Shown here: positions 181 to 41,291 of the stretch, piece by piece
Layout of the letters: every line of letters begins with the position of its first letter
Numbering within the stretch: the first letter of the stretch is position 1
Assembly (NCBI GenBank): GCA_039714795.1
Contig: JBDLIP010000001.1
Coordinates: forward strand, 1 to 47,328
Source: Pseudomonadota bacterium
GTDB lineage: Bacteria; Pseudomonadota; Alphaproteobacteria; JAGOMX01
Direction of reading: 5' to 3'
DNA: 47,328 nt
Made by a program: the position numbers and the translations under genes
Notes under the pieces: model-generated
What the model was told of the DNA's origin: nothing
The model's database searches: none
What the model saw: only the letters and a program-made list of their open reading frames with translations

Positions 181-207
181 CCAACAGTTTGATTCAGCTT
201 CAGTATA
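181..207 (+). repeat. Right terminal repeat of a MITE-like element (degenerate copy at window start)
   Basis: 'ccaacagtttgattcagcttcagtata' is the same right end as the copies ending at 2169 and 34398. The upstream core is degenerate. It contains the TGA stop of the ADH gene. Confidence 0.7.
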
Positions 208-1198
208 ACAATCCAGCCCCTTGAAAACCATCATGCTTTAAGGCTTCAAGCGCTTCATTTGCTAGGCTCAAGGGAAAGCCTACCACATGGGTTTTAATTC
301 CCAGCCTTGTCGCTTCTTGCAAAAACTCCTCCCCATCTTGGCGGGTGTTATTAGTCACACTGCGAATAACCCTTTCGCCATAAAGGATCTTATAATCAAA
401 AGAGGGAATGGGGCTCATGTGAATACCAGCAAGCACCAACACACCCGCTTTATCAAGCGCTTTAAGTGCAACCGGTACGATCTCTCCTACAGGCGCAAAA
501 ACAATGGCTGCATCAAGGGGTACTGGAGGCTTAGCCAATGTACCACCAGTCCAAACAGCTCCTAAAGATTCCGCCAACTCCTGATGTTTTTTATCGCGAG
601 TGGCCACGTAGACATCTGCTCCCCAAGCCTGCATTAGTTGAATTGCCACGTGCCCCGCTGCGCCAAACCCATAAATTCCCACCCGAGCGCCGGGCCAATA
701 CTGAATGCCAGTCAACCGAATTGAACGATATCCTATGATTCCGGCACACAATAGCGGTGCTGCTTGAGCGTCAGAAAATGCATCCGGCAATGGGTAAATA
801 TAATTTTCAGGTGCTACAGCATATTCAGCATAACCCCCTTGGGCTGTCCAGCCTGTAAACTTTGCCCTTTCACACAGATTTTCTTGAGATTTACGGCAAT
901 AGACACACGTTCCACAAGTGCTTTGCAACCAAGCCACTCCTACCCGTTGCCCTTTTTTGAATGCGTGAGTTTCACGCCCACACTCAGCAACTGTGCCTAC
1001 AATTTGGTGCCCTGGAATGATTGGCAACTTTGGCAAAGGCAAATCTCCTTCCACGACATGCAAATCCGTACGACAAATTCCGCACACGTTCACTTTGATA
1101 AGAACCTGATCTGGAAGACATGTGGGTTGTTCTACATCGGTATAGACTAAAGGATGGGTTGTTATAGGGGCGGCAGCTTTAAGCAGACAGGCTTTCAT
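200..1198 (-). CDS. Zn-dependent alcohol dehydrogenase (medium-chain dehydrogenase/reductase family)
   Basis: 332-aa ORF. Catalytic-Zn region 'CGICRTDLHVVEGD...GHQIVGTV'. Structural-Zn Cys cluster 'CGTCVYCRKSQENLC'. Rossmann glycine motif 'GIYGFGAAGH'. Confidence 0.9.
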   Translation of the reverse strand: MKACLLKAAAPITTHPLVYTDVEQPTCLPDQVLIKVNVCGICRTDLHVVEGDLPLPKLPIIPGHQIVGTVAECGRETHAFKKGQRVGVAWLQSTCGTCVYCRKSQENLCERAKFTGWTAQGGYAEYAVAPENYIYPLPDAFSDAQAAPLLCAGIIGYRSIRLTGIQYWPGARVGIYGFGAAGHVAIQLMQAWGADVYVATRDKKHQELAESLGAVWTGGTLAKPPVPLDAAIVFAPVGEIVPVALKALDKAGVLVLAGIHMSPIPSFDYKILYGERVIRSVTNNTRQDGEEFLQEATRLGIKTHVVGFPLSLANEALEALKHDGFQGAGLLY

Positions 1199-1349
1199 TG
1201 TTTTGTTATTCTTGAGTGATTCTGGAGTTATTTTAGCATAACGGACAACGAAATCTGTATCCTAAAATATTTCGTATTCCTTGCCAAAAGCAGCAAAAAT
1301 TCTTATAACTACAAGAAGTTTATCAAGACATTAATTATGTGTGAAAATT

Positions 1350-2036
1350 ATGATCATTACCTGCCAAAACTGCCAAAAACGCTACCAAGTTGACGATAAA
1401 GATATTGGTGAAAAGGGCCGAAAAGTCCGATGTGACTCCTGCAAACATGTGTGGACGCAAATCCCAGATCAACCCGTCACCAAGCGCACTGAGATTCGGC
1501 ACCTTGCGGGAAGCAACCCCAAGATCTTTCCAGAAAAACGCCCTAATTCATTCTCTTTTGGCTGGGCGAGTCTTGTTGTTTGCTTGTTGATTACGGTTGG
1601 GTCTCTTTGGGGGGCACGCCAAACGATTGTTAGCAGTTGGCCTGCTACGCGCCCCCTATACCAAGCTCTTGGTATAAGCCTACCTCTTCCAGGTCAGGGG
1701 CTTATTTTGGAAGGGGGAACCCCAATGCACGTCCTAGAAAATGACTCTTCTTATATTGTTGTTAGAGGTGAAATCACCAACAAAACTGATGATGTAATCC
1801 CTCTGCCTCCCTTGCATTTTCAATTGATTGGCTCGTGCAAACAAGCTCCTTGGTGGCAAAAAGCTTGGGGCTATCTACATGACAGTACTGTTGGCAACCA
1901 TAAACAGACATGTACACTTGCACACTGGAGACACAGCTTATCACAAAAGCGTTTACTCGCTGGCGAAAAGATTCAATTTGAAAGCGAACCACACACCACC
2001 ATGGCAAATGCAGATCAAATAAAGGTTCATTTTTGA
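1350..2036 (+). CDS. MJ0042-type zinc-ribbon domain membrane protein (DUF3426-like architecture)
   Basis: N-terminus 'MIITCQNCQKRYQV...KVRCDSCKHVW' has two CxxC pairs. One hydrophobic helix (WASLVVCLLITVGSLW) and a ~130-aa C-terminal domain follow. I prefer the ATG at 1350 over the GTG at 1341 used in the ORF track. Confidence 0.6.
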   Translation: MIITCQNCQKRYQVDDKDIGEKGRKVRCDSCKHVWTQIPDQPVTKRTEIRHLAGSNPKIFPEKRPNSFSFGWASLVVCLLITVGSLWGARQTIVSSWPATRPLYQALGISLPLPGQGLILEGGTPMHVLENDSSYIVVRGEITNKTDDVIPLPPLHFQLIGSCKQAPWWQKAWGYLHDSTVGNHKQTCTLAHWRHSLSQKRLLAGEKIQFESEPHTTMANADQIKVHF

Positions 2037-2049
2037 GTACATACAACCC

Positions 2050-2169
2050 ATGCTGATTCAAAATGTTGAGTTTAATGATAGGCTGCCAGTTTACAGTTTA
2101 CAGTTTACATTGGTAAATGAGCACTTTGAGTGCACCAGAAAATCAACAGTTTGATTCAGCTTCAGTATA
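2050..2169 (+). mobile_element. MITE-like palindromic element, subtype B ends
   Basis: Core 'gagtttaatgata..cagtttaca..ggtaaatgagcactttgagtg' flanked by inverted ends (tgctgattcaaaatgttg / caacagtttgattcagcttcagtata). The internal 'cagttta' is triplicated. It lies between convergent genes. Confidence 0.8.
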
Positions 2170-2230
2170 GCTTCCATAAATTACATTGTTCAGCGGTCTC
2201 ACATCCACTTGTAGGGAGTTATACAAAAGT

Positions 2231-3049
2231 TCATTTTTGCATATTCCAGTATTGGCTAATCCATGGAGATGGACGAATCGTTTTGTAGACGCACTTGAAA
2301 AACGGTAACCCCTCGGGCGACCAAACTCCACAAATGGCATCAGCAATCTTGGGATGCCCATGAAACGCTAAAACTTTTGTACCTTCCGGCAATTTTGGCT
2401 CAACAAAGAAACGTAAATACCACACTGGCAATGCATGAAACTTAAAGCTGCGGCACCACTCTTCAGGCCAAAATTTCAAGCGTCCCCACTTTTCAATCAC
2501 CTTCGCTGAGAGATACTCTTGGCTAGCAGTGTAAAACTGCTTAACGACTTCTTTCGGGTGTGCTTCAAAGTATTCTTTTATGAATCCAAGGGTGCCTACC
2601 CGCCACGAATAGCATGTTGCTTGCCCCACACGCTCACTTTTGACACTCCAGTCATTGATAATAACAAAATCATCGCCCAACGGATAAGAAACGAAGCAAT
2701 CCAGCTCACCGGTAATCACCACATCAAGATCAAAAAACAAAACACGCTGTCCGTTCAACCCACCCAACTCATCATCACAAAGGCCAGCTTCTTTTTGGTA
2801 AGCATACTTCACATCCTCTGGATTGCATTTCATCACAGGCAATGGTTGAGACAAAATCTCTGGGGTCAGTCCTGTTGCATCGTCGGTAAAACAGAAAAAA
2901 CGAAGTTCGTGTTTCTTCATGTTGCGTTTGACCATAGCGTACAAACAGTTGACGTCATGAGCCGTATACACCTGACCCCACTTAATACAAACAACGTTAG
3001 CAACTGGCTTTTTAGTCTGAGTTTTCTCCATGGTGTTTTCCATATTCAC
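2231..3049 (-). CDS. Conserved hypothetical protein, possibly GT-A-like nucleotide-sugar transferase
   Basis: 272-aa ORF. 'VVCIKWGQVYTAHDVNCLYAMVKRN...FFCFTDD' and the DxD-like 'FFDLDVVITG' resemble a small glycosyltransferase-like family. The start is uncertain (GTG 3049, ATG 3043 or ATG 3031). The product call is weak. Confidence 0.45.
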   Translation of the reverse strand: MNMENTMEKTQTKKPVANVVCIKWGQVYTAHDVNCLYAMVKRNMKKHELRFFCFTDDATGLTPEILSQPLPVMKCNPEDVKYAYQKEAGLCDDELGGLNGQRVLFFDLDVVITGELDCFVSYPLGDDFVIINDWSVKSERVGQATCYSWRVGTLGFIKEYFEAHPKEVVKQFYTASQEYLSAKVIEKWGRLKFWPEEWCRSFKFHALPVWYLRFFVEPKLPEGTKVLAFHGHPKIADAICGVWSPEGLPFFKCVYKTIRPSPWISQYWNMQK

Positions 3050-3075
3050 ATAATGCGTGCAAAAGGCTTATTATA

Positions 3076-3194
3076 CATACTCTCGTAAAACCAAAACCTC
3101 TAGTTTAATGATAGCTGCCAGCTTGCAGTTTACAACTGTAAATGAGCACTTCGAGCGTATCTGGAAACATAGGTTTTGATTTCACTTCAGTATA
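3076..3194 (+). mobile_element. MITE-like palindromic element, subtype A ends
   Basis: 'atactctcgtaaaaccaaaacctctagtttaatgatagctgccagcttgcagtttacaactgtaaatgagcacttcgagcgtatc...aggttttgatttcacttcagtata'. It has ~25-bp imperfect terminal inverted repeats. Confidence 0.85.
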
Positions 3195-3230
3195 TACTAA
3201 AAATACTCATGACCGAGCAACTACTTACAC

Positions 3231-4280
3231 CTACGCTGCGATCCTATGATCCTCCGGTTTACCTTCCGTGCTTTTACCATAAGCAGGTCGATTGAATCGA
3301 TCGCCAGAAACATCTAGGGCCTGGCATGCAATGGCCTTAATCTGGTCTGTTGCTTCATCCGTCTTGACCAACAATGTGTTGATAAGAGCCTGTTGTTCCT
3401 TAATTTTAGCTTCAAGCGAAACGGTTTTTTGCTGCATCAGCTTACGCTCCCCTTCTATTTCCTTAGCCCTTAGTTCAGTGTCAAACTTAAATCGGGTTTG
3501 AAGCTCTGAAGTAACCCGTTTTTCTGTCTCCTCTACAGCTTTAGCAATTTCAGCCGGAATAGCATCAACGGTTTTCTTAAACTGAGCCAATTCGCTCTCG
3601 CTTTGTTTCAAGTCAGCTTCTCGCTGCCCAAGCACCCTTTTCTTTTCGGTCATTTCTTTCTCGAGAGCATTCTGTTTGGCCTTATATTCATCTTCGTCTT
3701 TGCGCCTAGACATCTTAAGGCTATACGAATACTCCTCCTCATCACGGCTACGCTTTCTATCAAGTTCGGATTTAAATTCCTTATACTCTTGCTCCAAAGT
3801 TTGCCGTTCTTTGTGCCAGTGTTGTCGCTTTTCAGCCATATCGTTTTCAAAAGCTGCTTGGGACTCTTGTATTTTCAGTTGATGTTTTTTGCTTTCTTCT
3901 TCTTGAGTAATGATGAGGGCAGACAATGTGTGGGCAGTATCTTTAATGCCGTAAAGATTTTGCAAATGCTCTTGCTCGACCGATATAGATTTTTGCAAAT
4001 CACTCAACCGGCTGAACTCACCAACCAGTTGTTCACTTAAATGGTCAAGTTGCTTGGTTAGATTAATTTTAAGCTCCGCCAGATTAGAAATAATTGCGTG
4101 CTCTGAATTTTTGGTAGCTCTGGACAAAGTATCCCGCTGTTCCACTGATTTCTGCTGTTGCTGAGGATTCTTTTCAGATTGATTTTGTAATTGTTTAACG
4201 ACCTGCTCATAGGCTTCCAAAATCTGATTTTTGGTGTTTTTGGCAGAAATATCTGAGGGGATTTGAGTTTTCTCGGGCAT
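3231..4280 (-). CDS. Charged coiled-coil protein of unknown function
   Basis: The ORF is strongly E/K/Q/R-rich with heptad-like character throughout and no recognisable catalytic motif. The ATG at 4280 is preceded by 'aggag' 8 nt upstream. I prefer it over the TTG at 4304 of the ORF track. Confidence 0.6.
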   Translation of the reverse strand: MPEKTQIPSDISAKNTKNQILEAYEQVVKQLQNQSEKNPQQQQKSVEQRDTLSRATKNSEHAIISNLAELKINLTKQLDHLSEQLVGEFSRLSDLQKSISVEQEHLQNLYGIKDTAHTLSALIITQEEESKKHQLKIQESQAAFENDMAEKRQHWHKERQTLEQEYKEFKSELDRKRSRDEEEYSYSLKMSRRKDEDEYKAKQNALEKEMTEKKRVLGQREADLKQSESELAQFKKTVDAIPAEIAKAVEETEKRVTSELQTRFKFDTELRAKEIEGERKLMQQKTVSLEAKIKEQQALINTLLVKTDEATDQIKAIACQALDVSGDRFNRPAYGKSTEGKPEDHRIAA

Positions 4281-4315
4281 TGTCTTTTCTCCTAATTTTT
4301 CCAACTGTAAAGCGG

Positions 4316-4346
4316 CAGTGAAGCTGAATCAAAGTGCTCATTTACC
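4316..4346 (-). repeat. Internally deleted MITE fragment
   Basis: 'cagtgaagctgaatcaaa|gtgctcatttacc' is a terminal repeat joined directly to the core 'gtgctcatttac'. It sits 36 bp upstream of the coiled-coil gene start. Confidence 0.6.
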
Positions 4347-4521
4347 TCCTTACGCGACAACTCATTCATAACTCGTTATTGGCTGTAGAACAAGAGGGCA
4401 AGTGTCCGAGTTTATCTAAGGCAAGTATTTTTACCAAAATTTCTTTGTTTACTGGAGATTAACTTGGTTCTGTCGCATCTGTTGGCACCCCACATAATCC
4501 GTCACAATGGATAACACTTAT

Positions 4522-4542
4522 GTTTGATTCAGCCCGGGTATA
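4522..4542 (+). repeat. Solo MITE terminal repeat
   Basis: 'gtttgattcagcccgggtata' matches the right end 'gtttgattcagcttcagtata'. Confidence 0.5.
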
Positions 4543-4563
4543 TGCAATCTTTAATATGTTGCT

Positions 4564-4986
4564 ATGCACCATATGAATAGTGCTTTTTATATAAAAACAA
4601 CCTATGCCTATGGTGGCTTTTGGAAAAGGGTTGTCGCTGCTTTAATTGATGGACTAATTTTGTTGATTCCTTCGGCATTTTGTGACATTTTTTCACAAGG
4701 TATATTTGGTGGCATGACATTGTTAATAGTCATTGAATGGCTCTACGTTTCTCTTTTAGAATCTTCACGATATCAAGCAACACTTGGCAAACAGATATTT
4801 AGCTTAATTGTTGTCAATGGTGACTATCAAAGATTAACCTGGGCTAATGCAACTTTAAGATATTTCTGTCAATACATTTCAATGATTACTCTAGGGTTTG
4901 GTTATCTCATGGTTGCTTTCACTCCTAGAAAGCGTGGCTTGCACGATTATATAGCCAACACATACGTTGTGTACAAGCAAGAATAG
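4564..4986 (+). CDS. RDD family membrane protein
   Basis: 'YGGFWKRVVAALIDGLIL' N-terminal motif, hydrophobic helices and a C-terminal 'RKRGLHDYIANTYVV' give the typical RDD domain layout. Confidence 0.7.
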   Translation: MHHMNSAFYIKTTYAYGGFWKRVVAALIDGLILLIPSAFCDIFSQGIFGGMTLLIVIEWLYVSLLESSRYQATLGKQIFSLIVVNGDYQRLTWANATLRYFCQYISMITLGFGYLMVAFTPRKRGLHDYIANTYVVYKQE

Positions 4987-5085
4987 CTTCAAAGCTAAAA
5001 AGACATAATTTTTAGCATTTCTTGCTGGACCTAAGGGTGCAGAATATCGTACACATGTACTGAGTCTAAATAATGATTTGCTTAA

Positions 5086-11441: not shown

Positions 11442-11512
11442 TATTATAACTGTGCTGAATCGAAATGTTGAGTTTAATGATAGCGAGAAGCAGGCAGTCT
11501 ACAACTATAAAA
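11442..11512 (+). repeat. Left half of a MITE-like element (truncated)
   Basis: 'tattataactgtgctgaatcgaaatgttgagtttaatgatagcgagaagcaggcagtctacaactataaa' matches the left arm and part of the core. The right arm is missing. Confidence 0.65.
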
Positions 11513-11555: not shown

Positions 11556-11675
11556 TATACTGAAGTGAAATCAAAACCCTCTGTATCCTGATACGCTCGA
11601 AGTGCTCATTTACAATTGTAAACTGCGCGCTTCTCGCTATCATTAAACTAGAGGTTTTGATTTTACGAGAGTATA
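11556..11675 (-). mobile_element. MITE-like palindromic element (reverse orientation)
   Basis: 'tatactgaagtgaaatcaaaaccctct...gctcgaagtgctcatttacaattgtaaactgcgcgcttctcgctatcattaaactagaggttttgattttacgagagtata'. Full length. Confidence 0.85.
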
Positions 11676-13656: not shown

Positions 13657-14457
13657 ATGAAAAAACTTACTTGGACATTTATACTAGCCGGAGTTTTGCT
13701 TATAGGATACAACCCAGCAAAAGCTACAATCCTAGAAAATCCTATTCAGCAAAGTTCTGAATTAAACAATGCAGACAATGTGAATGGGCTTATCTTAATT
13801 AAAGGAGGCAAAAACGGTGGTGAGGGAGGAAAATCCTTTCGCCAACATAGAAAAGGTAGAGGAGATCACAAAACATTCAGGAAACACAGAAGCAGAGGTG
13901 ACCATAAAGCCTACAGGCACCATAAAAGACAAGGGGGCAAAAAACATTTTAGTCACAGAAGAGGCGGAAAACAGAATTATGCCCACAAAAGGCACCGTGG
14001 AGACCGACATTACTCCCATAAAAGACATCGTGGAGACAGGCATTACGCCCATAAAAGACATCGTGGAGACAGGCATTACTCCCATAAAAGACATCGTGGA
14101 GACAGGCATTACGCCCATAAACGGCATCGTGGTGAGCGTCATTACGCTCGAAGAGGATATCATGGTGAACGTCGTCATGCACGCTGGGAAAAGGGCAATA
14201 AAGAAAAGCACGAGAACTGGAAGAATGGCTACTACCGCAATCATAAAAATGGCTACTACCGGAAGGGCAAAGGTAGCCGTGAGTATGAGGGAGATCCTTC
14301 TGAGTTTGAGGAAACTGAGATATTTGAAGGCGATGAGGTCAGTGATGAGGCAAGTGTTGAGCCTGAGGGAATCATTGAAGAGACCGGTAGAGGCCTGATG
14401 CAAAGAGCTCAAGATCGAGTCGTAGATGAAATGTTAAACCGCGTCCTACCACAATAA
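13657..14457 (+). CDS. Secreted, highly basic H/R/K-rich tandem-repeat protein with six RGD motifs and an acidic C-terminal tail
   Basis: SD 'aggag'. Signal peptide 'MKKLTWTFILAGVLLIGYNPAKA'. Five 11-aa units 'HKRHRGDRHY(S/A)'. Acidic tail 'EYEGDPSEFEETEIFEGDEVSDEASVEPEG'. I recognise no homologue. Confidence 0.75.
   Translation: MKKLTWTFILAGVLLIGYNPAKATILENPIQQSSELNNADNVNGLILIKGGKNGGEGGKSFRQHRKGRGDHKTFRKHRSRGDHKAYRHHKRQGGKKHFSHRRGGKQNYAHKRHRGDRHYSHKRHRGDRHYAHKRHRGDRHYSHKRHRGDRHYAHKRHRGERHYARRGYHGERRHARWEKGNKEKHENWKNGYYRNHKNGYYRKGKGSREYEGDPSEFEETEIFEGDEVSDEASVEPEGIIEETGRGLMQRAQDRVVDEMLNRVLPQ
13984..14148 (+). repeat. 33-bp tandem repeat x5 inside the CDS
   Basis: Units start at 13984, 14017, 14050, 14083 and 14116. 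Units 2-4 are identical except for one g/t (Ala/Ser). Unit 5 diverges (RGE). Confidence 0.95.
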
Positions 14458-14476: not shown

Positions 14477-14595
14477 TATACTGAAGTGAAACCAAAACCT
14501 CTGTTTTCTGATAAGCTCGAAGTGCTCATTTACAATTGTAAACTGCGCGCTTCTCGCTATCATTAAACTAGAGGTTTTGATTTCACGAGAGTATA
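14477..14595 (-). mobile_element. MITE-like palindromic element (reverse orientation)
   Basis: Nearly identical to the 11556-11675 copy and full length. It begins 20 bp after the stop of the repeat-protein gene. Confidence 0.85.
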
Positions 14596-19946: not shown

Positions 19947-20169
19947 TATTAACCTCCGCTAGTCTTTACAATCAAACAAAATACCCAGCCACTGTACCAA
20001 ATCTCCATCTCAATTGATACTTTTTTTAACTCACTAACATTAATTATATATATTCTTTTTCAATCTTTGACATGATGTTTCTGACGTCAAAAAACTCGAC
20101 TCCTAGCCACAATGACTGGCCATCCGAAACTAGAATGAGCTAATAACCCTAGAAAGAATTATCAACAAG

Positions 20170-20298
20170 CTACAAAATATCTCTCCCAAGTTCCGTCTGT
20201 TCAGAAAGGTTTTCTGCATTCGCGCGATAATTTTCCGCCACAAAACAAAACACCTGCGCCACCAAAATCGCCGATAATAATAGGCAAAATCTTTTCAT
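20170..20298 (-). CDS. Small exported or membrane-anchored peptide, paralogue 2 (42 aa)
   Basis: 'MKRFCLLLSAILVAQVFCFVAENYRANAENLSEQTELGRDIL'. SD 'ggag' lies 10 nt upstream of the ATG at 20298. TAG replaces the CAG of paralogue 1. The ORF track misses it because another frame is longer. Confidence 0.5.
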   Translation of the reverse strand: MKRFCLLLSAILVAQVFCFVAENYRANAENLSEQTELGRDIL

Positions 20299-20529
20299 TT
20301 TCTATCTTCTCCACAAATTGGGGGTACACACCCCTCACTTGCGAGCATCCTAATATTTGCCAGCTAGAAAGGCAAGAAAATATGATAACCAAGTTTGAGA
20401 GATTTTTCTAACTCACTGACATTGGCGGGAGATGTATCTTCTTTTTCAAGTTCTGATACGATCTTTCTCAAAAAAAAACCAACCCCCCAACCAAAATAAT
20501 CGGCCATACAAAACAATAATTAGCTAATG

Positions 20530-20676
20530 TTAGTTAGTATTATCAACAAGCTGCAAAATATCTCTCCCAAGTTCCATCCGCTCAGAAAGGTTCTCTGCAT
20601 TTGCGCGACAATTTTCCGCCACAAAACAAAACACCTGCGCTACTAAAATTGCTGATAGCAGATAAAATCTTTTCAT
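20530..20676 (-). CDS. Small exported or membrane-anchored peptide, paralogue 1 (48 aa)
   Basis: 'MKRFYLLSAILVAQVFCFVAENCRANAENLSERMELGRDILQLVDNTN'. SD 'ggagg' lies 9 nt upstream of the internal ATG at 20676. It has a positively charged n-region plus a 17-aa hydrophobic stretch. It begins 61 nt after the STAND stop. Confidence 0.55.
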   Translation of the reverse strand: MKRFYLLSAILVAQVFCFVAENCRANAENLSERMELGRDILQLVDNTN

Positions 20677-20737
20677 TTTCCACTTCCTCCATAATTGGGC
20701 CTCAAACACCACTCCCGGGCATCCTAATCTCTGACAG

Positions 20738-23700
20738 TTAGAAAGGCAAGAAAATATGATAACCAAAACTAAGAGAGTTTTCTAACTCACTGACATTAGC
20801 AGTAGATGTATCTTCGTTTTCAAGTGCTGATGCGATCTTCTCAATATTTATATGCTGGGGGAGGTAAAAATCCTTGAAAACTCTCAAGGATTTTTTCAAT
20901 AATTCTTTTTTTTCCGTGTTTTCTAGGGTTAGTGCCAGATTGGCCATGGCCATGGCAGTGGTGGGATGATTTTTGCCATAAGAATGGCGGATTGTTTTAA
21001 GTGATTGCTGCAAAAGTTTTCTGGCATTCTGGACATCTCCAAGCAAACGGTAGACATTTCCTAAGTTTGCAGAAACTATGGCCGCTAAGAGATGACCTTC
21101 TCCATATTTCTCGTTAAGCTTTTCAATAGATTTTATGAGCAGTTTTTTACTTTGCAAATAATCTCCTAAAATGCAATGAACAATTCCCATACGCGCAATT
21201 AGAATGGAAATCCATGCATTGGTTGTATTATCATCCTTTTCAACAAATTTGAACGCTTCAGCCAAAAGCTGTTTGCTTTCAGAAGTCTTGTGTGTTGCAG
21301 CACAAGCCAGGGCTAGATTTACCATTGAAAGCGCGGTCCAAATGTGACTGTCTCCATGCAATTTTCTGCGTATTTTTAGGGCATTTCGAAAATATGTTTC
21401 GCTTTTTTGTAAATGACCTAAATCATAATAAACAAATCCCAACAGGATCTGATTGTACGCTAGACTAGAAATTGATGTGGGACTTTGAGAGTTTATGTAA
21501 AGAGCATCATCCAGTATCGTCTTTCCCTCTATCCTTAGACCCAACACATAATTAATCCACCCTAGCATATATAACACCTGAGCCGTTTCGGCATGATTGT
21601 TACCATAATGTTTCTGGTAGAGCACTAGTGTTTGGGCAAGCACGTTTTTGACCGTACGAAACTCCCCTAACAACATGTGTGCTGTACCATACCGGAAAAG
21701 TGCGAGTGCTGTTTTAGGGTGCTCTTTCCCATAGGTTTTTTCACTAATTGCGGCAATTTTTTTAAAAGCGTCTCGCTTTTTAAAGCTTTTGCCCAAATGG
21801 TGATAAACGGAACCCAATAAAGTTAAAATATGCAAGTTGGTTGGATGATTTTCACCATACAGAGATTCATTAATCTTCAAGGCTTCTTCTAAGATATGTT
21901 CTGCTTTATGGGGCTCATTTAAAACACGATAGGTAAGAGTGTAGATAGAAACCTGAGTTTCATCCGAGGTAAAGGAGCTGACCTCTTTTAGAAACTCTTC
22001 CAACCGAGGGATTGTTTGATCTATTAAATGACGTTCTTTGTTAGAAAGATCCGTATTCTTTGTCCTTCCGGGATATATTTCATCAATAACAACTTTCATC
22101 CCTTTCAAATAGGTCAGTCTTTGTTCCTGATCTAATTTATTCCTGAGCCAGCTAGAGACCAAGCGGTGAACCGAGATATCGTCACCTGAGATTTTTATCA
22201 AAGAGTATTGCCGCAAAATACCGAGCAACCTATTCAATTCGCATTCTGATTTATTATTATTGCCTTCAGATAAGTACCGCACCAAAAGCGATTTGGGAAT
22301 GCTTGCTGGCTGACAAAAAGAGATAAAATTCAGCAAATCAAGCGCCTTCTCACCGTCTTTTGTTTTCTTAATAGAGTTTAAACTAAGTTCCCATGTCGCA
22401 TAGACCGGGTCATGTGTAATATTCAAAGGTGTATTGCTATCGGATAACAGATGTTCTCTTTCAGTTTCATACAATTTTAGATAGTTCGAAATTGAAATGG
22501 CGTTTTCTGTGATATAACCTGCGGCTTGAGATATAGCTAAAGGGGTATAATGCAACTCGTTTAATAGTTTGGCAGCTCTTTGTTTATAGAGCGGTCCTTT
22601 CTGAAAGTTAGAAGGAAGTTGCGCTTCGAGCAAGGCAAAAGATTCCTTTTTTGTCATCACGTCAACCTCAACTGCATTTTTTAGCTTATGGTTGCTTGAG
22701 GTTACGATGATGTGAGCATTATTGGGTAGGTAGTCGTATAGCATAACCATATTTGGTGCATTATCATAGACTAGTAGGGTGCTCCCCTTATTTTCAATCC
22801 AAGTTTTTACTTCCCTAATTTTTTGCGCATCAGACATATTATCGGAAAACAGCTTCAGTTTGTTCCCTATCTCAAAATAATCCACCTTTAATGACGATTC
22901 ATTTTCTGCATTAAGCCATGCTCTAAATTTATAGGATTGCCTAGGATAGTGAATGGCATACATCGCTAAAAAAGTCTTACCGATGCCTCCCAATCCAACC
23001 ACCCCTATGATCTTTGTTGATTGTTTTGCTTGATCTTTGTCCTCAAATTGACTCCATATAGAATCCAGCAGTTCGGTTCGCTTAATATAAGGGTCTGGCA
23101 GCAAAGGGAGGTTCCACTTGAGCATTGAAGCACCCTGCTCTTTTGCAGAAGGTGCTGGCGATGATGGTAATGTTGCATGTACAGAAGAGCTATTGTTTTG
23201 CTTGTCTGTATCCCAATATTTTATATTTAAAGTTAAGAGTACTACACAGATTACTCCAAAAAAAGTTACACTAGTCGCAATGAATTTTAAATAAAAATCT
23301 CTGTTTAGTTCTAGCCTTGCTGCTTGTCTTGGCGTATCTGGCTCCGGCATTTTAGCTATGTTTTGTGTTTTAAATTCATCAAAAGATTCACTGATTTTTG
23401 CTTTTGGCAATAGCGTAGCTAAAAGATTCAAGACAAACAGGTAGTAGTTATCAAAATCTCCCAGGGCAAAGCACCCTAAGCACGAGTCAGATTTTTGCAC
23501 GTCTTTGAAAGAGGTTACTGGATCAAGCGAGAGAAAAATTGTTTGCATTCCCTCCTTTTGATGTTCTGGATTGCTAAGTTCTGACGTATCAGCACCAATG
23601 ATGACAACATAAAAATCTGGGAAGGTGCTTGGTGAGATTTCTATCAGCTGGATTCCCGACAGCTCAAGATGCCTTTTCAAACGTTTTATGTTCTCTGAAC

Positions 23701-24124: not shown

Positions 24125-24184
24125 TGATTTACTTTAAGATCAGAATCTATACTTAAAGAAAAATGAACTCCCTATTTTCTGTTA

Positions 24185-24260
24185 CGCTCAAAGCTCAAAG
24201 TGCCTACTTACCAGTGCAAACTCTACGCTTGCAGAATATCATTAAGCTAGAGATTTTCAT
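24185..24260 (-). repeat. Degenerate MITE remnant in the STAND-gene upstream region
   Basis: 'gctcaaagtgcctacttaccagtgcaaactctacgcttgcagaatatcattaagctagagattttcatc' aligns with the core and right arm of the reverse-oriented element. The left arm is absent. Confidence 0.55.
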
Positions 24261-24474
24261 CTGTCATTGGTACGTATCAACAGCACATTTCCTTTTAACA
24301 TAAGTGTTGGGTTCACCGCAAATTTTTACAACAACCAACTAGCGGTATCATCAGGACCGCGGTTTTTGTCCAAATGATTTTTGAGTTTTACTTGTAAAAT
24401 TCAAAATCGTTTGGTAACAAAAACGTATATTTTTGAACCACGCATAAAATTGGAAGTTGTTTCGCTCACATTAC

Positions 24475-34279: not shown

Positions 34280-34398
34280 TATACCCGTGCTGAATGAAAC
34301 TGTTGAGTTTTATGATAACAAAAAGCGCGCAGTTTACATGGGTAAATGAGCATTTTGAGTGTGTCAGAAAACCAACAGTTTCATTCAGCTTCAGTATA
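34280..34398 (+). mobile_element. MITE-like palindromic element, subtype B ends
   Basis: 'tatacccgtgctgaatgaaactgttgagttttatgata...gcagtttacatgggtaaatgagcattttgagtg...caacagtttcattcagcttcagtata'. It lies between the convergent atpC and the SPFH gene. Confidence 0.85.
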
Positions 34399-36592: not shown

Positions 36593-36670
36593 GAATTTAG
36601 GCCTTTTGATTGTGTCCTCCATTACAGCATGGATGTGGTAAAGGGAAGGTAAATTTACAGTTTTTCTCTC

Positions 36671-36783
36671 TATGCTAAAGCTGAATTGTTGGTTTTCTGA
36701 TAGCTCGAAGTGCTCATTGACACTTGTAAACTGCATGTTTCTCGCTATCATCAAACTAGAGGTTTTGATTTCACGAGAGTATA
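36671..36783 (-). mobile_element. MITE-like palindromic element (reverse orientation, hybrid ends)
   Basis: 'tatgctaaagctgaattgttgg...gctcgaagtgctcattgacacttgtaaactgcatgtttctcgctatcatcaaactagaggttttgatttcacgagagtata'. It ends 7 nt before the coaE ATG. Confidence 0.8.
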
Positions 36784-36790
36784 GAACACC

Positions 36791-37372
36791 ATGCAGGTTA
36801 TAGGACTCACCGGATCCATTGGCACAGGCAAGTCGGCTGTTGCCACAATGCTAAAGGACAAAGGTATTCCTGTGCATGACGCCGATGCGACTGTCCACCA
36901 ATTACTCGAATCCGATGCAGCAACTATCCAACAACTTGAAAAGTACTTTCCCGAAGCTATAGAAAGCCAACAGGTGAATAGAAAGGCCTTGCGAAAAATT
37001 GCACTCGGTGACCTTAAAAAAATGAAAATTCTTGAAGGGATTTTACACCCTAAAGTTAAAACCTCGCAACAGGAGTTCCTGGCAAAACATCGAGAACGAC
37101 AAATACCGTTGGTGGTCCTGGAGATTCCCCTCCTCTATGAGAAAGGCTACCAAAGGCTTTGTGACTATGTCATAGTTGTCACTTGCTCTGCAAAGGCTCA
37201 ACAACAACGCTTGTACAAGCGCCCAAACTTGACACATTCTGAAATCGATGCAATCTTGTCCTTGCAATGGTCAAGTGAAAAGAAAGTTTCTCTTGCTGAC
37301 TATGTGATAAACACAACGGGCCCAAAATCTAACACGCTCGAGCAGCTTGAAAAAATCATGAAAGGAATCTAA
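36791..37372 (+). CDS. coaE: Dephospho-CoA kinase
   Basis: 'IGLTGSIGTGKS' P-loop and 'LEIPLLYE'. It is followed by dnaQ after a 2-nt gap. Confidence 0.93.
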   Translation: MQVIGLTGSIGTGKSAVATMLKDKGIPVHDADATVHQLLESDAATIQQLEKYFPEAIESQQVNRKALRKIALGDLKKMKILEGILHPKVKTSQQEFLAKHRERQIPLVVLEIPLLYEKGYQRLCDYVIVVTCSAKAQQQRLYKRPNLTHSEIDAILSLQWSSEKKVSLADYVINTTGPKSNTLEQLEKIMKGI

Positions 37373-37374
37373 CA

Positions 37375-38067
37375 ATGTCACGACAAGTCGTTCTGGACAC
37401 AGAAACAACAGGTCTTAGCCCCAAAGACGGACATCGTATTGTTGAGATCGGTTGCTTGGAAACAATCAATCGTATTCCCACTGGCAAAACCTTTCATGTG
37501 TACATCAATCCCAAACGCGACATGCCACAAGGCGCTTATGATGTCCACGGACTTTCGATAGACTTTCTAGAGAAACATCCGCCATTTGAGGATATCGTCA
37601 GTGATTTTTTGAGCTTCGTTCAAGATACACCATTGGTGATCCATAATGTTCCTTTTGATATGAAATTTATTAATCACGAACTACAAATATTGGGACACCC
37701 AACGATTCCCGCTAACCGGACAATTTGTACTCTAAAAATGGCACGTAAGAAATTTCCGGGATCTCCTGCAAGCCTTGATGCCTTGTGTAAGCGTTTTAAG
37801 GTAGATAATACGGGCAGACAAAAACACGGAGCATTAATCGATGCTGAACTCCTCGCCAAAGTTTACATTGAGCTTACTGGAGGACGTCAGACCAGTATGG
37901 ACTTCGGCGCAGCAGCAAACCAAAGCACAGCGCAACAAGCCCCAACACCGCAAAATCGGACGTTAAGAGCCTCTAGGAACTTTCGACCAAAGCAAGAAGA
38001 GCTGACGAAGCATCGCCAGCTCTTAAGCGGATTAAAAAATCCAATTTGGAACAAGTTTACTAATTAG
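37375..38067 (+). CDS. dnaQ: DNA polymerase III subunit epsilon (3'-5' exonuclease)
   Basis: Exo I 'VVLDTETTGL', Exo II 'LVIHNVPFDMKFI' and Exo III 'HGALIDAELLAKVY'. Confidence 0.95.
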   Translation: MSRQVVLDTETTGLSPKDGHRIVEIGCLETINRIPTGKTFHVYINPKRDMPQGAYDVHGLSIDFLEKHPPFEDIVSDFLSFVQDTPLVIHNVPFDMKFINHELQILGHPTIPANRTICTLKMARKKFPGSPASLDALCKRFKVDNTGRQKHGALIDAELLAKVYIELTGGRQTSMDFGAAANQSTAQQAPTPQNRTLRASRNFRPKQEELTKHRQLLSGLKNPIWNKFTN

Positions 38068-38070
38068 CCC

Positions 38071-38181
38071 CGCGAGAAATGAAGACCTCTAGTTTAATGA
38101 TAGCTGCCAGCTTGCAGTTTACTTGGGTAAATGAGCACTTCGAGCGTATCAGGAAAGAGGTTTTGATTTCACTTCAGTATA
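38071..38181 (+). mobile_element. MITE-like palindromic element, subtype A (left end slightly eroded)
   Basis: 'cgcgagaaatgaagacctctagtttaatgatagctgccagcttgcagtttacttgggtaaatgagcacttcgagcgtatcagg...ggttttgatttcacttcagtata'. It fills almost the whole dnaQ/secB convergent spacer. Confidence 0.85.
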
Positions 38182-38192
38182 GCCCTATTAAA

Positions 38193-38735
38193 TTAGCCTT
38201 GGGCCGCCTGTTGCTGCATTTGCTGAACTTGTTGGCGATAAATCGCAGCAAAATCAACTGGGGACAGGGCAAGAGGCGGAAAACCACCATCGCGGGTCAC
38301 ATCAGCAACAATATTGCGTGCAAATGGGAACAGCAAACGTGGGCATTCGATCAGTAGAATTGGTGGGATGTTCTGATCTTCGATACCTGTCAATGTGAAA
38401 ACACCAGAATAAGTTAGATCCATAACAAAAACCTTCTCTGTTTCTGTTTCTGACTTACTGGCATTGGCGATAATGTGCAAGGACACTTCATACTGAGTCT
38501 CTTGCAATTTGTTTGCACTCACTTCAATGTTTAGATTAATCGAAGGCGCAGTCCTTTCTTTACCCATGGACTGCAAAGGTCCAGAAGTTTCAAAAGAAAG
38601 ATCCTTGATGAACTGAGCATTAACAGCTACAGGCAAAACAGGAATTTGTCCTGCAGTTTGGTCTGCCTGTGCCTTTGTTGTTGTTTTAGTATTTTTTTTA
38701 GATGTGGTGTTCTTAGGTGTTGTCTTCTTAGCCAT
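38193..38735 (-). CDS. secB: Protein-export chaperone SecB (with K/T-rich N-terminal extension)
   Basis: 'AQFIKDLSFE' resembles E. coli 'IYTKDISFEAP', and 'LLIECPRLLFPFARNIVADVTRDGGFPPL' is present. ATG 38735 is preceded by 'gaggag'. Confidence 0.92.
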   Translation of the reverse strand: MAKKTTPKNTTSKKNTKTTTKAQADQTAGQIPVLPVAVNAQFIKDLSFETSGPLQSMGKERTAPSINLNIEVSANKLQETQYEVSLHIIANASKSETETEKVFVMDLTYSGVFTLTGIEDQNIPPILLIECPRLLFPFARNIVADVTRDGGFPPLALSPVDFAAIYRQQVQQMQQQAAQG

Positions 38736-38901
38736 TGTTTCTCTCCTCAAATTATGGTTATCATCCTACCATGGTGGAATGGTACACGATATGCCGCGCG
38801 TTGGCTATATCTCTTTATAGTTGCACTCTTCCCGTGATGTGCTTAAATAGTAAGAGAAGAACCTTACTTTTTCGTTGAGCAAATAAATAAAGTTATAACA
38901 C

Positions 38902-39537
38902 ATGAACACACATTTCGATCTGATACTACTGGCAGCACTGGCTGGTTTTTTAATCTTTAGGCTTTTCAGTATACTGGGAAAATACAATCACCCCACTGAC
39001 AAACCATTGGCAAAGGATAATGCTGACCGCGCCCAGAATAAAATGATGCAGGATATTCCTACTGCACGAAAGCAAGTTGATAGAAATACACAAACATACA
39101 CAGACAACCTTAGAAAACTCCAGCAAGCCGATTCCCAGTTTAGCGAGCAGAGCTTCTTGCAAGGGGCGTACATCGCATATGAATCGCTTTTTGCAGCTCT
39201 TCGTGACGCTGATCAAAAGACCATAAAGTCGTTGTGCAGTCCAAAAATGCAACAAGTCTACCAAGACATGCTGGCCACACGTCATTCACGCCAATGGATT
39301 AGCAAGAACGAATTGCTACGCATCCTTTCTGCATATATCAGAGATATCCACCTCAGTGGCAAAACAGCAAAAATTACGGTTGAGTTTAAAGCAGAACAAG
39401 TTTTAGAAACTCGAGACGTTAAAAACCGCCTCGTCGAAGGAGACCCTGACCAAATCGAAATTATCGAGGAATGCTGGACTTTTTCCCGGACCATGTCCTC
39501 AAAAAACCTAAACTGGCGGCTGGTAGATGTCACGTAA
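38902..39537 (+). CDS. Tim44-like domain protein
   Basis: N-terminal TM helix 'LILLAALAGFLIFRLFSIL' plus a C-terminal Tim44-like fold region. It occupies the typical alphaproteobacterial position between secB and mltA. Confidence 0.75.
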   Translation: MNTHFDLILLAALAGFLIFRLFSILGKYNHPTDKPLAKDNADRAQNKMMQDIPTARKQVDRNTQTYTDNLRKLQQADSQFSEQSFLQGAYIAYESLFAALRDADQKTIKSLCSPKMQQVYQDMLATRHSRQWISKNELLRILSAYIRDIHLSGKTAKITVEFKAEQVLETRDVKNRLVEGDPDQIEIIEECWTFSRTMSSKNLNWRLVDVT

Positions 39538-40567
39538 TGCTCCAGCGCAAAATCTCAATTTACAACCAATTGAATGGCAGGACCTAACTGGCTGGCAGCA
39601 GGACCCTTTACTGGATATTTGGCCTGGTATCGTTGAATCGATGCAATGGTCAAATCATGCCATTGAGAATCCCAATACCATCAATGCAAATGATACTCAT
39701 GCCATACGCACATATCTAGAAACATACTTTCAGCCCCATCGCATCAATTTGGATTACCCCACACCAGGGCTCTTTACCGGCTACTTTGAACCTGAGTTCC
39801 AGGCTTCCTATCATCAAACTGACGTTTTTTCTGTTCCTATATATCGTAGACCAAAAAATCTGATTTTGATTGAGGACCTTGGGATCTTTCGCGATGAGTT
39901 TACTGGAACCCGAATTGCAGGTAGACAAATCGGGGGCGATTTACAACCCTATTTTACTCGCAAAGAGATTGACTTGGGCGCACTTGTCGGCCAAGGTCTT
40001 GAAATTGCTTGGTTGCAAAATCCCATTGACGCCTTTTTCATGAGCGTACAAGGATCAGGTCGCATTCAGTTTGCAGATGGAAAAACCATGGTCCTCACTT
40101 ACGACGCTGCCAATGGCTTCCCCTACACGGCAATTGGCCAAGTGCTCATTCAGCAAGGTAAGATACCCAAAGGGGCGGTAACTATGCAAAGTATTTACCA
40201 ATGGTTTGCAGAGCATCCTGACCAGATCAATGAAATTCTCTGGCACAACCAGTCATATATCTTTTTTCGTGAGATTGAGGAAGGATATCAGATTGGAGCC
40301 TCTGGCATGCAATTAATCCCTGAAAGAAGCTTAGCTATTGACCCTGCATTTATTCCCTTTGGAACGCTGTTGTGGGTTGATATCGAAAATCCTCACCATA
40401 GGAAACAGAGATGGCAAAAACTCATGCTTGCCCAAGATAAAGGAAGTGCAATCAAGGGCCCAGTCCGAGGTGATGTTTATTGGGGGAAAGGAGCTGCTGC
40501 TGGCAAAATAGCCGGGCAGATGCAATCAATCGGAAGCTATGATGTGGTGTTGCCCCGTGAAAAATAA
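39527..40567 (+). CDS. mltA: Murein transglycosylase A homologue
   Basis: 'FFMSVQGSGRIQFADG' (MltA domain) and 'DKGSAIKGPVRGDVYWG' (3D domain). No N-terminal signal peptide is visible, and an in-frame TAG lies directly upstream. Confidence 0.85.
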   Translation: MSRNAPAQNLNLQPIEWQDLTGWQQDPLLDIWPGIVESMQWSNHAIENPNTINANDTHAIRTYLETYFQPHRINLDYPTPGLFTGYFEPEFQASYHQTDVFSVPIYRRPKNLILIEDLGIFRDEFTGTRIAGRQIGGDLQPYFTRKEIDLGALVGQGLEIAWLQNPIDAFFMSVQGSGRIQFADGKTMVLTYDAANGFPYTAIGQVLIQQGKIPKGAVTMQSIYQWFAEHPDQINEILWHNQSYIFFREIEEGYQIGASGMQLIPERSLAIDPAFIPFGTLLWVDIENPHHRKQRWQKLMLAQDKGSAIKGPVRGDVYWGKGAAAGKIAGQMQSIGSYDVVLPREK

Positions 40568-41045
40568 CAAACACCCCTCCCCTTCTGAAACTGATTTGGA
40601 CCTATGGCAGCGCTTTGTAAAAGGGGTTGCACCAATACCTAGGGCATACACCACCGTGACTATCAAAACTCAAAAGTCGCAACCGACCAAACCATCAAAG
40701 CTTCCAGCTTTTCAGCTGCAAAAGTGCCGCCGCCCGAAAAAGGGCGAAGTTCGCGTCGAAGCGACTCTTGATTTACACGGATTGACTCAAGAGCAAGCGC
40801 ATCAAAGCATCAACTCGTTTTTACAAACTGCCCATTACACACGCAAGCGTTGCGTTTTGATCGTTACTGGCAAGGGTGCTGTTGATCCTGAAGATCGATC
40901 CTGGTGGGAAGAGCGAGGGGTACTACGCACCATCGTCCCCCATTGGCTTGAATCCGGAATAAACCGAGATCGTGTGCGGTCATATTCTGTTGCACACCTC
41001 AAGCACGGCGGTCAGGGAGCCCTTTATGTTTTCTTAACCCATTGA
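40539..41045 (+). CDS. Smr domain protein
   Basis: 'LDLHGLTQEQAHQSINSFL', 'VLIVTGKG' and 'GGQGALYVFL'. The true start may be the GTG at 40557. Confidence 0.8.
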   Translation: MMWCCPVKNNKHPSPSETDLDLWQRFVKGVAPIPRAYTTVTIKTQKSQPTKPSKLPAFQLQKCRRPKKGEVRVEATLDLHGLTQEQAHQSINSFLQTAHYTRKRCVLIVTGKGAVDPEDRSWWEERGVLRTIVPHWLESGINRDRVRSYSVAHLKHGGQGALYVFLTH

Positions 41046-41062
41046 GCATTGAGTGAGACAAA

Positions 41063-41181
41063 TATACTCTCGTGAAATCAAAACCTCTAGTTTAATGATA
41101 GCTGCCAGCTTGCAGTTTACTTGGGTAAATGAGCACTTCGAGCGTATCAGGAGACAGAGGTTTTGATTTCACTTCGGTATA
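41063..41181 (+). mobile_element. MITE-like palindromic element, subtype A (best-preserved copy)
   Basis: Left end 'tatactctcgtgaaatcaaaacctct' and right end 'agaggttttgatttcacttcggtata' form a ~26-bp imperfect TIR. The core is identical to the 38071-38181 copy. Confidence 0.9.
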
Positions 41182-41273
41182 TGCCCAAACCTGTGGCTTT
41201 CTTACCTATTTACATAAATTAATCTAAAAATTTTCTAATCATTTGGTGACAAATGATATCGAAATACGCTAGA

Positions 41274-41291
41274 TATACTCTCGTGAAATCA
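41274..41291 (+). repeat. Solo MITE terminal repeat
   Basis: 'tatactctcgtgaaatca' equals the left TIR, with no core behind it. It lies 50 bp upstream of the LysR-type gene. Confidence 0.6.

Follow-up and report, generated by a model that had tools for sequence, protein, structure and literature searches.

ERIC repeats, also named IRU or RU-1, have been used for typing for decades, and we know of no transposase or origin for them. They are imperfect palindromes of 127 bp with TA at both termini that lie between genes in both orientations, without a known transposase (PMC2229807, PMC10969869); TA duplication has been reported for them (PMC2229807), and a 2024 review of MITEs (miniature transposable elements with inverted repeats) credits them only to Enterobacteriaceae and Vibrionaceae (PMC10969869). 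Here we describe a family of 119-bp imperfect palindromes from an uncultured alphaproteobacterium that is like ERIC in each of these structural respects, down to its first seven bases, TATACTC. The stretch of DNA analysed, referred to below as the window, is contig JBDLIP010000001.1 from position 1 to 47,328. The copies insert precisely at TA with duplication of this dinucleotide, and the asymmetric hairpin tip at their center recurs, on sequence comparison, in hairpin repeats of many phyla.

Other palindromic repeats of bacteria come close to the window family in part of their features. RUP of S. pneumoniae is also a palindromic MITE of ~100 bp with a TA target and a proposed in-trans transposase of the IS630 family (PMC2229807), but its terminal repeats clearly match those of IS630-Spn1, whereas the window family has only TATA and RAATSAAAA in common with the IS630-like end resident in its genome. 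The Correia/NEMIS elements of Neisseria, compared by description only, are TA-duplicating palindromic MITEs that occur densely in a small genome and also comprise subtypes and hybrid ends (PMC2229807; PMC10969869); they differ in having terminal repeats of their own, 24-26 bp long and starting TATAG, and an integration host factor (IHF) box. The Rickettsia palindromic elements (RPEs), again compared by description only, are dense palindromic repeats in a reduced alphaproteobacterial genome and often lie in frame inside genes, while the window family avoids open reading frames (ORFs; 15 of 171 loci). QMITE2 of Coxiella burnetii, a long-hairpin MITE of 150-190 bp located mostly in 3' untranslated regions and spacers, likewise occupies ~1% of its genome (PMC5896051), but has variable direct repeats of 7-11 nt, a GTAG REP core and IS1111 as target, none of which is seen here. 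Finally, REPIN/RAYT systems also consist of hairpin-forming intergenic repeats in hundreds of copies. The window family differs from them in having no REP head (GTAG/CGTC) and no flanked RAYT gene, and in having a TA duplication.

Precise insertion at TA and recent spread in one genome

The host assembly, of which the window is contig 1, comprises 1.86 Mb in 183 contigs (95.7% complete, 43.5% G+C). The named proteins nearest to its alanyl-tRNA synthetase (AlaRS), at 62-64% identity, belong to Holosporales-like and other Alphaproteobacteria. The family was first detected in the form of direct and inverted matches of 100-130 nt, and the copies, brought into a common orientation, align end to end. 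Searching the assembly with nhmmer yielded 238 matches that reduce to 171 loci on 85 contigs, 81 on the plus and 90 on the minus strand, and 118 of these loci span at least 100 model positions. With R1, a covariance model of 34 genomic copies, 140 matches were obtained. Altogether, the family amounts to 18 kb, or ~1% of the genome. An earlier reading of the window, made from its letters alone (the sequence-only reading), had noted both orientations, which the genome-wide counts bear out, and the possibility attached to it that the copies might be confined to the window is thereby ruled out.

In an alignment of 104 genomic copies, the information content is zero immediately beyond TATAC...GTATA. 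As conservation stops right outside these ends, the unit is 119 bp long; it reads TATAC TCTC GTGAAATCAAAACCTCTAGTTTAATGATAGCGAGAAGCGCG CAGTTTAC TTGG GTAAATGAGCA CTTCGAGCGTATCAGGAAACAGAGGTTTTGATTTCAC TTCA GTATA. The terminal inverted repeats are formed by TATAC...GTATA together with complementary arms of 17-19 bp, and the whole unit is near-palindromic. Taken singly, copies form one long hairpin, whose folding energy is -50 to -55 kcal/mol (z -7 to -11 relative to dinucleotide shuffles), in agreement with the single hairpin that the sequence-only reading had foreseen.

The two end subtypes and the hybrids reported in the same reading were also recovered throughout the genome. Type A arms (GTGAAATCAAAACCTCTAG / CAGAGGTTTTGATTTCAC) occur on both sides of 49 copies and type B arms (GCTGAATCAAAATGTTGAG / CAACAGTTTGATTCAGC) on both sides of 27, while a type C arm (GCGAGAAATGAAAACC) is less common than either. 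Approximately seven copies, including those at 36671 and 38065 of the window, combine arms of different types, and every one of these hybrids is a singleton. Only copies with matched arms have multiplied, and the arms of each subfamily have changed together; in the family alignment, 14 of the 31 predicted pairs retain pairing through double-sided changes. Two versions of the inner left segment, GCGAGAAGCGCG and GCTRCCAGCTTG, were each found with A and with B arms. The copies therefore recombine.

For an empty-site test, the flanks of each copy were joined by a single TA and the resulting sequence was searched in the genome (contigs of the assembly are denoted by C and their number). The empty site of the copy at C89:105 matches three paralogues (C167:2742-2833, C139:158-67 and C40:244-153) with 97.8% identity over all 92 nt, ungapped and with exactly one TA at the junction. 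Two empty paralogues, on C19 and C92, correspond to the copy near C12:20991. A type B element harbors a further copy, at C126:1123, and excision of the latter together with one TA restores the TTTTATGAT of the type B element. Several tandem pairs of copies have the common junction GTA-TA-TAC. The empty paralogues and the nested copy thus demonstrate, from the sequence itself, precise insertion with TA duplication.

The family also spread recently and specifically in this one uncultured alphaproteobacterium with a small genome. The copy at 41063 of the window has ~20 genomic copies at 93-98% identity, which points to recent activity as judged from the sequences. BLAST did not find the family in 40 relatives, and R1 gave no match in five other genomes of the same family and order. 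No copy is present on the contig of a relative whose AlaRS is 85% identical, a contig that is non-syntenic. A search of other assemblies for insertion polymorphism returned no contig with an identical neighboring protein.

The repeats thus have the generic properties of bacterial MITEs, being short, non-coding, multi-copy and dispersed, with terminal inverted repeats and a target-site duplication; an insertion sequence (IS) with the same ends was not found in the fragmented assembly. They very probably constitute a non-autonomous MITE family, a 119-bp near-palindrome TA/TAC...GTA/TA that targets and duplicates TA. This agrees with the dispersed, non-autonomous MITE-like family of the sequence-only reading, as does a density comparable to that of ERIC, Correia elements or RPEs.

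One of the empty-site cases involves a repeat family in its own right, with at least five copies that are ~98% identical over 92 nt (C89:~60-320, C167:2742-2833, C139:67-158, C40:153-244 and C125:1-84). One of them carries the MITE and the others are empty sites.

Copies in the window and their placement among genes

The window contains eight near-complete copies, one degenerate copy, one half copy and four end remnants of the 119-bp imperfect palindrome TATAC...GTATA. Window copies were placed with R1, and nhmmer supplied the degenerate copy, the half copy and the end remnants. A second model, R2, was built from 32 foreign representatives without window sequences and is described further below. 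The features are as follows.

178..208, plus strand: solo right end with a type B arm, ...CAACAGTTTGATTCAGCTTCAGTATA (nhmmer model positions 100-130, E 2e-4 within the window)
2043..2169, plus strand: near-complete copy with B/B arms and a degenerate left terminus, between a convergent zinc-ribbon/DUF3426 gene and an unnamed ORF (R1 92.3 bits)
3076..3194, plus strand: complete 119-bp copy with A/A arms in a tandem (minus/minus) spacer (R1 118.1 bits)
4316..4346, minus strand: internally deleted remnant in which GTAAATGAGCACTTTGA is joined to TTCAGCTTCA (nhmmer)
4522..4546, minus strand: solo left end of type B, TATACCCGGGCTGAATCAAAC (nhmmer)
11444..11511, plus strand: half copy running from the type B left arm through the apex and ending after the loop (nhmmer model 10-77, 36 bits)
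11556..11675, minus strand: complete copy of 120 bp with A/A arms in the divergent hydrolase/thiolase spacer (R1 130 bits)
14477..14595, minus strand: complete copy with A/A arms in the tandem spacer that precedes the ABC-F gene (R1 142 bits; hairpin -55.5 kcal/mol; R2 48.9 bits)
24146..24278, minus strand: degenerate, old copy located upstream of the STAND gene (49.4 bits with nhmmer, model 7-131)
34280..34398, plus strand: complete copy with B/B arms between the convergent atpC and SPFH genes (R1 135.6 bits; fold -50.5 kcal/mol; R2 47.3 bits)
36671..36783, minus strand: hybrid copy of 113 bp with a left arm of type A and a right arm of type B and a small deletion, in the divergent NfeD/coaE spacer (R1 70.6 bits); its subtype call is 'A?', the type B-like right arm being read from the sequence
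38065..38181, plus strand: hybrid copy with a left arm of type C and a right arm of type A (subtype CA) and a degenerate left terminus, between the convergent dnaQ-like gene and secB (R1 104 bits)
41063..41181, plus strand: complete copy with A/A arms in the tandem smr-to-LysR spacer (R1 137.8 bits; BLAST identity of 96-98% with ~20 copies elsewhere; fold -50.5 kcal/mol, z -7.3)
41269..41295, plus strand: remnant consisting of 20 nt of the type A left end, TATACTCTCGTGAAATCA, then GTATG (nhmmer)

All nine copies listed in the sequence-only reading were found by the covariance model or nhmmer at, or within a few bases of, the positions given there, and its fragments and solo ends were recovered by nhmmer. 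Three of the nine copies lie in convergent, four in tandem and two in divergent spacers, and their neighbors are housekeeping genes (mreBCD-pbp2-rodA, thiolase, ABC-F, both atp operons, alaS, recA, coaE, secB, mltA and smr). The density of one copy per 4.7 kb is approximately twice the genome mean of one per 10.9 kb. As the sequence-only reading had stated, the window encodes no transposase: none of the 40 ORFs scanned carries such a domain.

In the copy at 2043-2169, CAGTTTA is locally triplicated in the core before the apex (2089-2108), which looks like slippage within the conserved core. Two other repeats of the window were recorded as well. Positions 13976-14173 hold five to six tandem units of 33 bp, encoding 11-residue repeats that are 71-91% identical, within a 266-aa ORF (13657-14457) without a Pfam match. 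A tandem duplication of ~375-381 bp (86-89% identity) at 20012-20842 lies downstream of, and overlaps, the 3' end of the 1128-aa HTH/NB-ARC/TPR STAND gene.

Genome-wide placement was assessed with a crude gene set, in which ORFs of at least 100 aa make up 82% of the genome. Against this coding fraction, the midpoint of a locus falls within an ORF in only 15 of 171 cases (p 5e-98). The sequence-only reading had perceived a preference for positions just after stop codons or between convergent genes. After removal of element bases, the number of copies per kb of spacer is 0.55 for tandem, 0.75 for convergent and 0.66 for divergent spacers (chi-square p 0.34), and the apparent preference for terminator positions is a small-sample impression. 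The density merely tracks spacer length, with copies persisting where they are harmless, in any type of spacer and in either orientation. Orientation is also unrelated to local GC skew (p 0.21; a weak proxy for the replication strand) and to the gene-strand majority (p 0.68).

A role as terminator, which had been suggested together with one in RNA stability, is not supported, because density follows spacer length, orientation is random and T-tracts are few. In co-directional spacers the element is oriented like the genes in 23 of 42 cases, and 13 of 81 copies are followed by at least four T in a row. The 50-bp stem is A+T-rich, unlike an intrinsic terminator, in which a G+C-rich stem precedes a T-run and is oriented with the upstream gene. 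The wider proposal that the hairpins are kept by the host for transcription termination, or for stabilization or destabilization of mRNA, has in its favor their very high stability, the several window copies located directly after stop codons, and the precedent of Yersinia, where ERIC copies change mRNA decay in an orientation-dependent manner (PMC2229807, PMC10969869). We nevertheless consider it improbable: besides the unbiased orientation, the proportionality of density to spacer length across the three spacer classes and the scarcity of T-runs, no other genome of the order (n=5) has the family, and nested and tandem self-insertions as well as decayed remnants exist. Effects of single copies on neighboring mRNAs would be possible by-products.

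A central apex in common with ERIC and other hairpins

Scanning one genome per species for the exact core CAGTTTAC-N4-GTAAATGAGCA revealed at least 120 stretches, compared with ~4 expected by chance. The matches listed include Thiotrichaceae, Methylococcales, Pseudomonas, Stutzerimonas, Shewanella, Halomonas and Coxiellaceae, as well as Prevotellaceae and other Bacteroidota, Desulfobacterales, Geopsychrobacteraceae and an alphaproteobacterium. Each of them has the core at the tip of a long and imperfect palindrome, 119-190 nt in length, a range taken from clean cases only, as fold-based estimates overshot through spurious outer pairs. The arms of this superfamily are self-complementary, yet unrelated from lineage to lineage; many gammaproteobacterial types are bounded by TA, in the form CTAG...CTAG or TAAC...GTTA. 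Several metagenome-assembled genomes (MAGs) contain many copies.

The distribution of the superfamily (loci L016-L135 and L165-L172) varies among these hosts. In Pseudomonas, Stutzerimonas and Shewanella the element is often single and apparently fixed, and in Thiotrichaceae, Methylococcales, Prevotellaceae and Bacteroidales MAGs it is multi-copy and often located at contig ends.

Conservation extends to the shoulders of the apex, AAGCG before and TTTTGAG after it, and to two non-complementary boxes, CAAGGC on the left and TAACGCAG on the right. The conserved loops are asymmetric (GCGCAG versus TGAGCA; AAGGC versus AACGC). Among the 32 representatives, which are less than 80% identical, compensatory changes affect 19 of 27 stem pairs. 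R2 matches the window copies with E values of 7.7e-11 to 7.4e-10. It also matches 12 of 301 genomes sampled across the class, mostly of 0.9-2.5 Mb, in which the apical stem covaries (TGTAC/GTACA, TGTAT/ATACA) and the arms differ again. In the host genome, the generic apex AGYTTAC-N4-GTAARTGA occurs 74 times, always within MITE loci, and in the reversed control it does not occur at all. The apex was found in none of 2.9 million viral contigs and in only four plasmids. These sequence comparisons place the window family in a wider set of hairpins whose arms are lineage-specific and whose asymmetric apex, GCG-CAGTTTAC-N4-GTAAATGAGCA, is one and the same.

A description of this apex module was found neither in Rfam 15 nor in the searchable literature, in which no paper had the apex string. 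The match to a known structured RNA family that had been contemplated alongside the sequence-only reading was looked for in Rfam 15, where no family reached its gathering score in the window, in seven superfamily loci or in the ERIC loci, and a relaxed search returned only a spurious plant miRNA hairpin (E 0.45). The covarying stems and conserved loops could in principle belong to a family of structured small-RNA genes, or to another known RNA family, and not to mobile DNA. We give this reading next to no credence, in view of the Rfam result for the window and the seven superfamily loci, of ~170 copies with pairs of insertions and empty sites, and of flanks that carry no information and hence no conserved promoter.

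The closest known relative in layout is ERIC. Of 5,426 E. coli genomes, 5,424 contain the ERIC core, known from the ERIC1R and ERIC2 primers, without a mismatch (100% identity), and E. coli copies read TATACTCTAAATAATTCGAGTTGCAGGAAGGCGACAAGTGAGTGAATCCCCAGG AGCTTAC ATAA GTAAGTGA CTGGGGTGAGCGAACGCAGACGCAGCACATGCAACTTGAAGTATGACGAGTATA. Both ERIC and the window family contain the central hairpin AG-YTTAC-N4-GTAAR-TGA, with agreement at 15 of 17 positions and one compensatory pair, and both have GAGCG at an equal offset after the apex. ERIC and the superfamily both have AAGGC and AACGCAG, at distances that agree to within two bases; the window family does not have these boxes. The arms of ERIC are unrelated to those of the window family, and its hosts are Enterobacteriaceae and Vibrionaceae as opposed to an alphaproteobacterium.

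Sequence profiles did not connect the two. A hidden Markov model (HMM) of eight E. coli ERIC copies did not detect the ERIC core GTGAATCCCCAGGAGCTTACATAAGTAAGTGACTGGGGTGAGCG in the host genome (best E 1.7) and matched none of 128 superfamily loci, while R1 and R2 gave no match on an E. coli chromosome. On an ERIC locus, R2 scored 14.7 bits, from the 19-nt apex layout alone. In half-by-half alignments evaluated against shuffles, ERIC reached z 4.9 and 4.4 with L169, a superfamily member matched by R2 at E 9e-11, and z 3.3 with the window consensus, in the left half only. As profile methods make no connection and the half-by-half tests lend modest support, we call the window element ERIC-like by its architecture and do not count it as a member of ERIC; through the apex module, the two are probably related, to judge by their sequences. 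The sequence-only reading had not recognized the element. Its termini, TA duplication, size and apex layout are nevertheless those of ERIC/IRU, and its apex recurs verbatim in hairpin repeats of many phyla.

The arms of L169 (G088:C10:910-1175), an element of an alphaproteobacterial MAG, are of the Bacteroidales type (AGTGCTTGTCCATAATGTC...), and no other superfamily member resembles E. coli ERIC as closely (GTGAAT..AGGAG-TTTAC..TGACT..GTGAGCGTAACGCAG). L169 lies on a 2.8-kb contig, and contamination of the bin is possible.

Candidate enzymes and the role of the apex

Selfish, non-autonomous insertion at TA is the best-supported mechanism for the family, with an IS630/Tc1-like transposase as the leading candidate enzyme and a single-strand mechanism that recognizes the tip as the main rival. 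Transposition would be catalyzed in trans. The most likely single candidate, to which we give somewhat less than even weight, would be a TA-specific DDE transposase of the IS630/Tc1 type, several copies of which are present in the genome; an enzyme of this kind is proposed as mobilizer because of the target site and of its presence in the same genome. Conservation of the apex and complementarity of the arms would be needed for mobility and not for a host function.

An IS630/Tc1-like element is located at C39:99-1168 (locus L152) and contains a 335-aa ORF with weak DDE_3 and HTH_32 matches. Full-length homologues of this transposase have 422 aa and are 66-73% identical; in metagenome contigs, they are flanked by perfect 25-bp terminal repeats, TAGTGGTTTGCAAATGAATTGATAG, bordered by TA. 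The resident IS630-like end, TA/TAGGCACCTGCAGATGAAAAGG (also read TA/TAGGCACCTGCAGATGARAAGGTAAAATTCG), occurs eight times in the assembly, on C39, C78, C142, C26, C57, C110, C162 and C36. Five of these ends (C142, C26, C57, C110 and C162) coincide with contig ends, and the element is therefore multi-copy. Its second end was not recovered in the assembly, since the copies break it. In favor of this candidate, the motif RAATSAAAA lies at the same or nearly the same distance from the terminus in the MITE arms and in the resident end, which otherwise have only TATA in common. A 59-bp TA-flanked chimera at C36:3158-3218 (locus L154) combines an IS630-like end, TATAGGCACCTGCAGGTCAGAAGGTAAAATTCGAC, with a MITE-like end, TATACTCGTGGCTCGAAT; the MITE copy at C101:5448 is headed by the latter end as well. 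From its sequence, the chimera may be a hint that one enzyme handles both types of end.

The 5' region of the IS630-like element exists in two sequence variants. Another repeat of high copy number, 'X', abuts this element at two different internal positions (C39 and C78). Its end (...CCCTGACATTTGGAGAAGATAC, then unique flanks) is present in at least nine copies, in the first ~96 nt of C39, C78, C179 and C10 and in the last ~96 nt of C172, C125, C25, C114 and C104, and its interior is missing from the bin. Repeat 'X' has no Rfam match, group II intron models included.

A number of results weigh against mobilization of the family by such an enzyme, and against a MITE defined by its ends. The IS with matching terminal inverted repeats for which the sequence-only reading had proposed a search was not found: this 183-contig assembly contains no IS with TATAC...GTGAAATCAAAACC ends, scans for the ends gave only MITE copies, and partial nhmmer matches gave no pair of ends at the spacing of an IS. 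The assembly is a fragmented MAG, in which multi-copy ISs are under-assembled. A complete genome with ~9 superfamily copies (G041) also held no IS-sized pair of the same ends, all pairs being 147 nt apart. The only assembled copy of the transposase, on C39, is cut at residue ~327 of 422, where it is abutted by repeat 'X'. The MITE arm matches the resident IS630-like end weakly, at ~14 of 24 positions. Across the 301 class genomes, the enrichment of DDE_3 with the apex is weak (7 of 12 apex-positive versus 89 of 289 apex-negative genomes, p 0.058) and no better than that of the Y1_Tnp control (5 of 12 versus 54 of 289, p 0.063), and this co-occurrence test nominates no enzyme. Moreover, the middle of the element is conserved across phyla, whereas a MITE derived by deletion should keep its ends and not its middle. 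Lastly, in 49 superfamily representatives the apex-sense strand (CAGTTTAC...GTAAATGAGCA) folds 7.35 kcal/mol better than its complement, a bias that double-strand cut-and-paste transposition does not predict.

The last two points also speak for the main rival, an apex-defined element in which the conserved asymmetric tip is recognized and the element moves, or is copied, as a single-stranded sense hairpin of DNA or RNA, with arms that merely pair and do not act as the terminal repeats of a MITE. In accordance with this possibility, the apex is conserved nearly letter for letter across phyla on unrelated arms, the conserved loops of the superfamily are asymmetric, the stem pairs covary between lineages (19 of 27, as above), and so does the apical stem, which reads TTTAC/GTAAA, TGTAC/GTACA or, in ERIC, CTTAC/GTAAG. 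The sense strand is the more stable one in 37 of 49 superfamily representatives, with 12 opposite (p 1e-6; p 7e-6 with the apex masked), despite a random orientation relative to genes (18 versus 19 in tandem spacers; 39 versus 38 beside gene 3' ends). Strand-specific pairing that has no tie to host transcription speaks for propagation of the element itself, as opposed to a function for the host, and the better folding of the sense strand hints at a single-stranded step. That searches of the host genome and G041 yielded no parent IS, and that mixed-arm hybrids are restricted to singletons, also fits such an element.

Exact TA duplication is, however, a signature of DDE transposition of the Tc1/IS630 type and not of known single-strand transposons, and it weighs against the apex-defined element. 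Within the window family itself the strand asymmetry is weak (-0.7 kcal/mol, not significant; p 0.016 for the arms only), and orientation shows no bias relative to GC skew. The Y1 transposases of the host are ordinary IS200-type enzymes with unrelated ends, and the co-occurrence test is as silent on a candidate enzyme for this mechanism as it is for the other. On balance, we regard the apex-defined element as possible but doubtful.

Mobilization by a Y1 (HUH) transposase, as in REPIN/RAYT-type or IS200/IS605-derived palindromes, could account for palindromic, intergenic elements in a genome with four Y1_Tnp genes or fragments (C114:154-585, C55:9107-9508, C14:334-720 and C115:~830-930). These are standard IS200-like units, however, with end hairpins of their own, of the CGCCTTTAGGCG type, which are unrelated to the MITE, and the repeat does not flank them. 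Together with the TA duplication, the absence of GTAG/CGTC REP heads and the lack of a replication-strand bias, this makes a Y1-mobilized origin very unlikely. Integron attC sites were rejected as a further candidate, as the copies do not form co-oriented cassette arrays and are conserved at the tip, not at the base.

Selfish insertion at TA by an enzyme acting in trans remains the mechanism that we favor. Taken alone, it would add one more MITE family to those of bacteria, although an unusually clean one, in that filled and empty sites within the same genome prove the TA duplication, and one that has undergone a recent burst in a reduced 1.86-Mb genome. What raises the finding above a routine MITE is the apex, which is common to ERIC-like repeats far outside the groups to which ERIC is credited. 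The conserved middle, as opposed to the ends, matches the layout of the ERIC core, and a strand-specific, covarying apex on unrelated arms is not predicted by the notion of a MITE as an internally deleted IS. The apex also provides a concrete, mutable target for finding the mobilizing enzyme.

More speculatively, these hairpins might form a pan-bacterial class whose inherited and recognized part is the asymmetric apex AG-YTTAC-N4-GTAAR-TGA with its GCG/GCA shoulders and not the termini, whose single-stranded sense hairpin would be acted on by a widespread enzyme, and of which ERIC would be the enterobacterial branch. We put this forward tentatively, as the less probable outcome. If true, the 35-year-old ERIC repeats would gain an origin, along with a mechanism of mobilization that can be tested.

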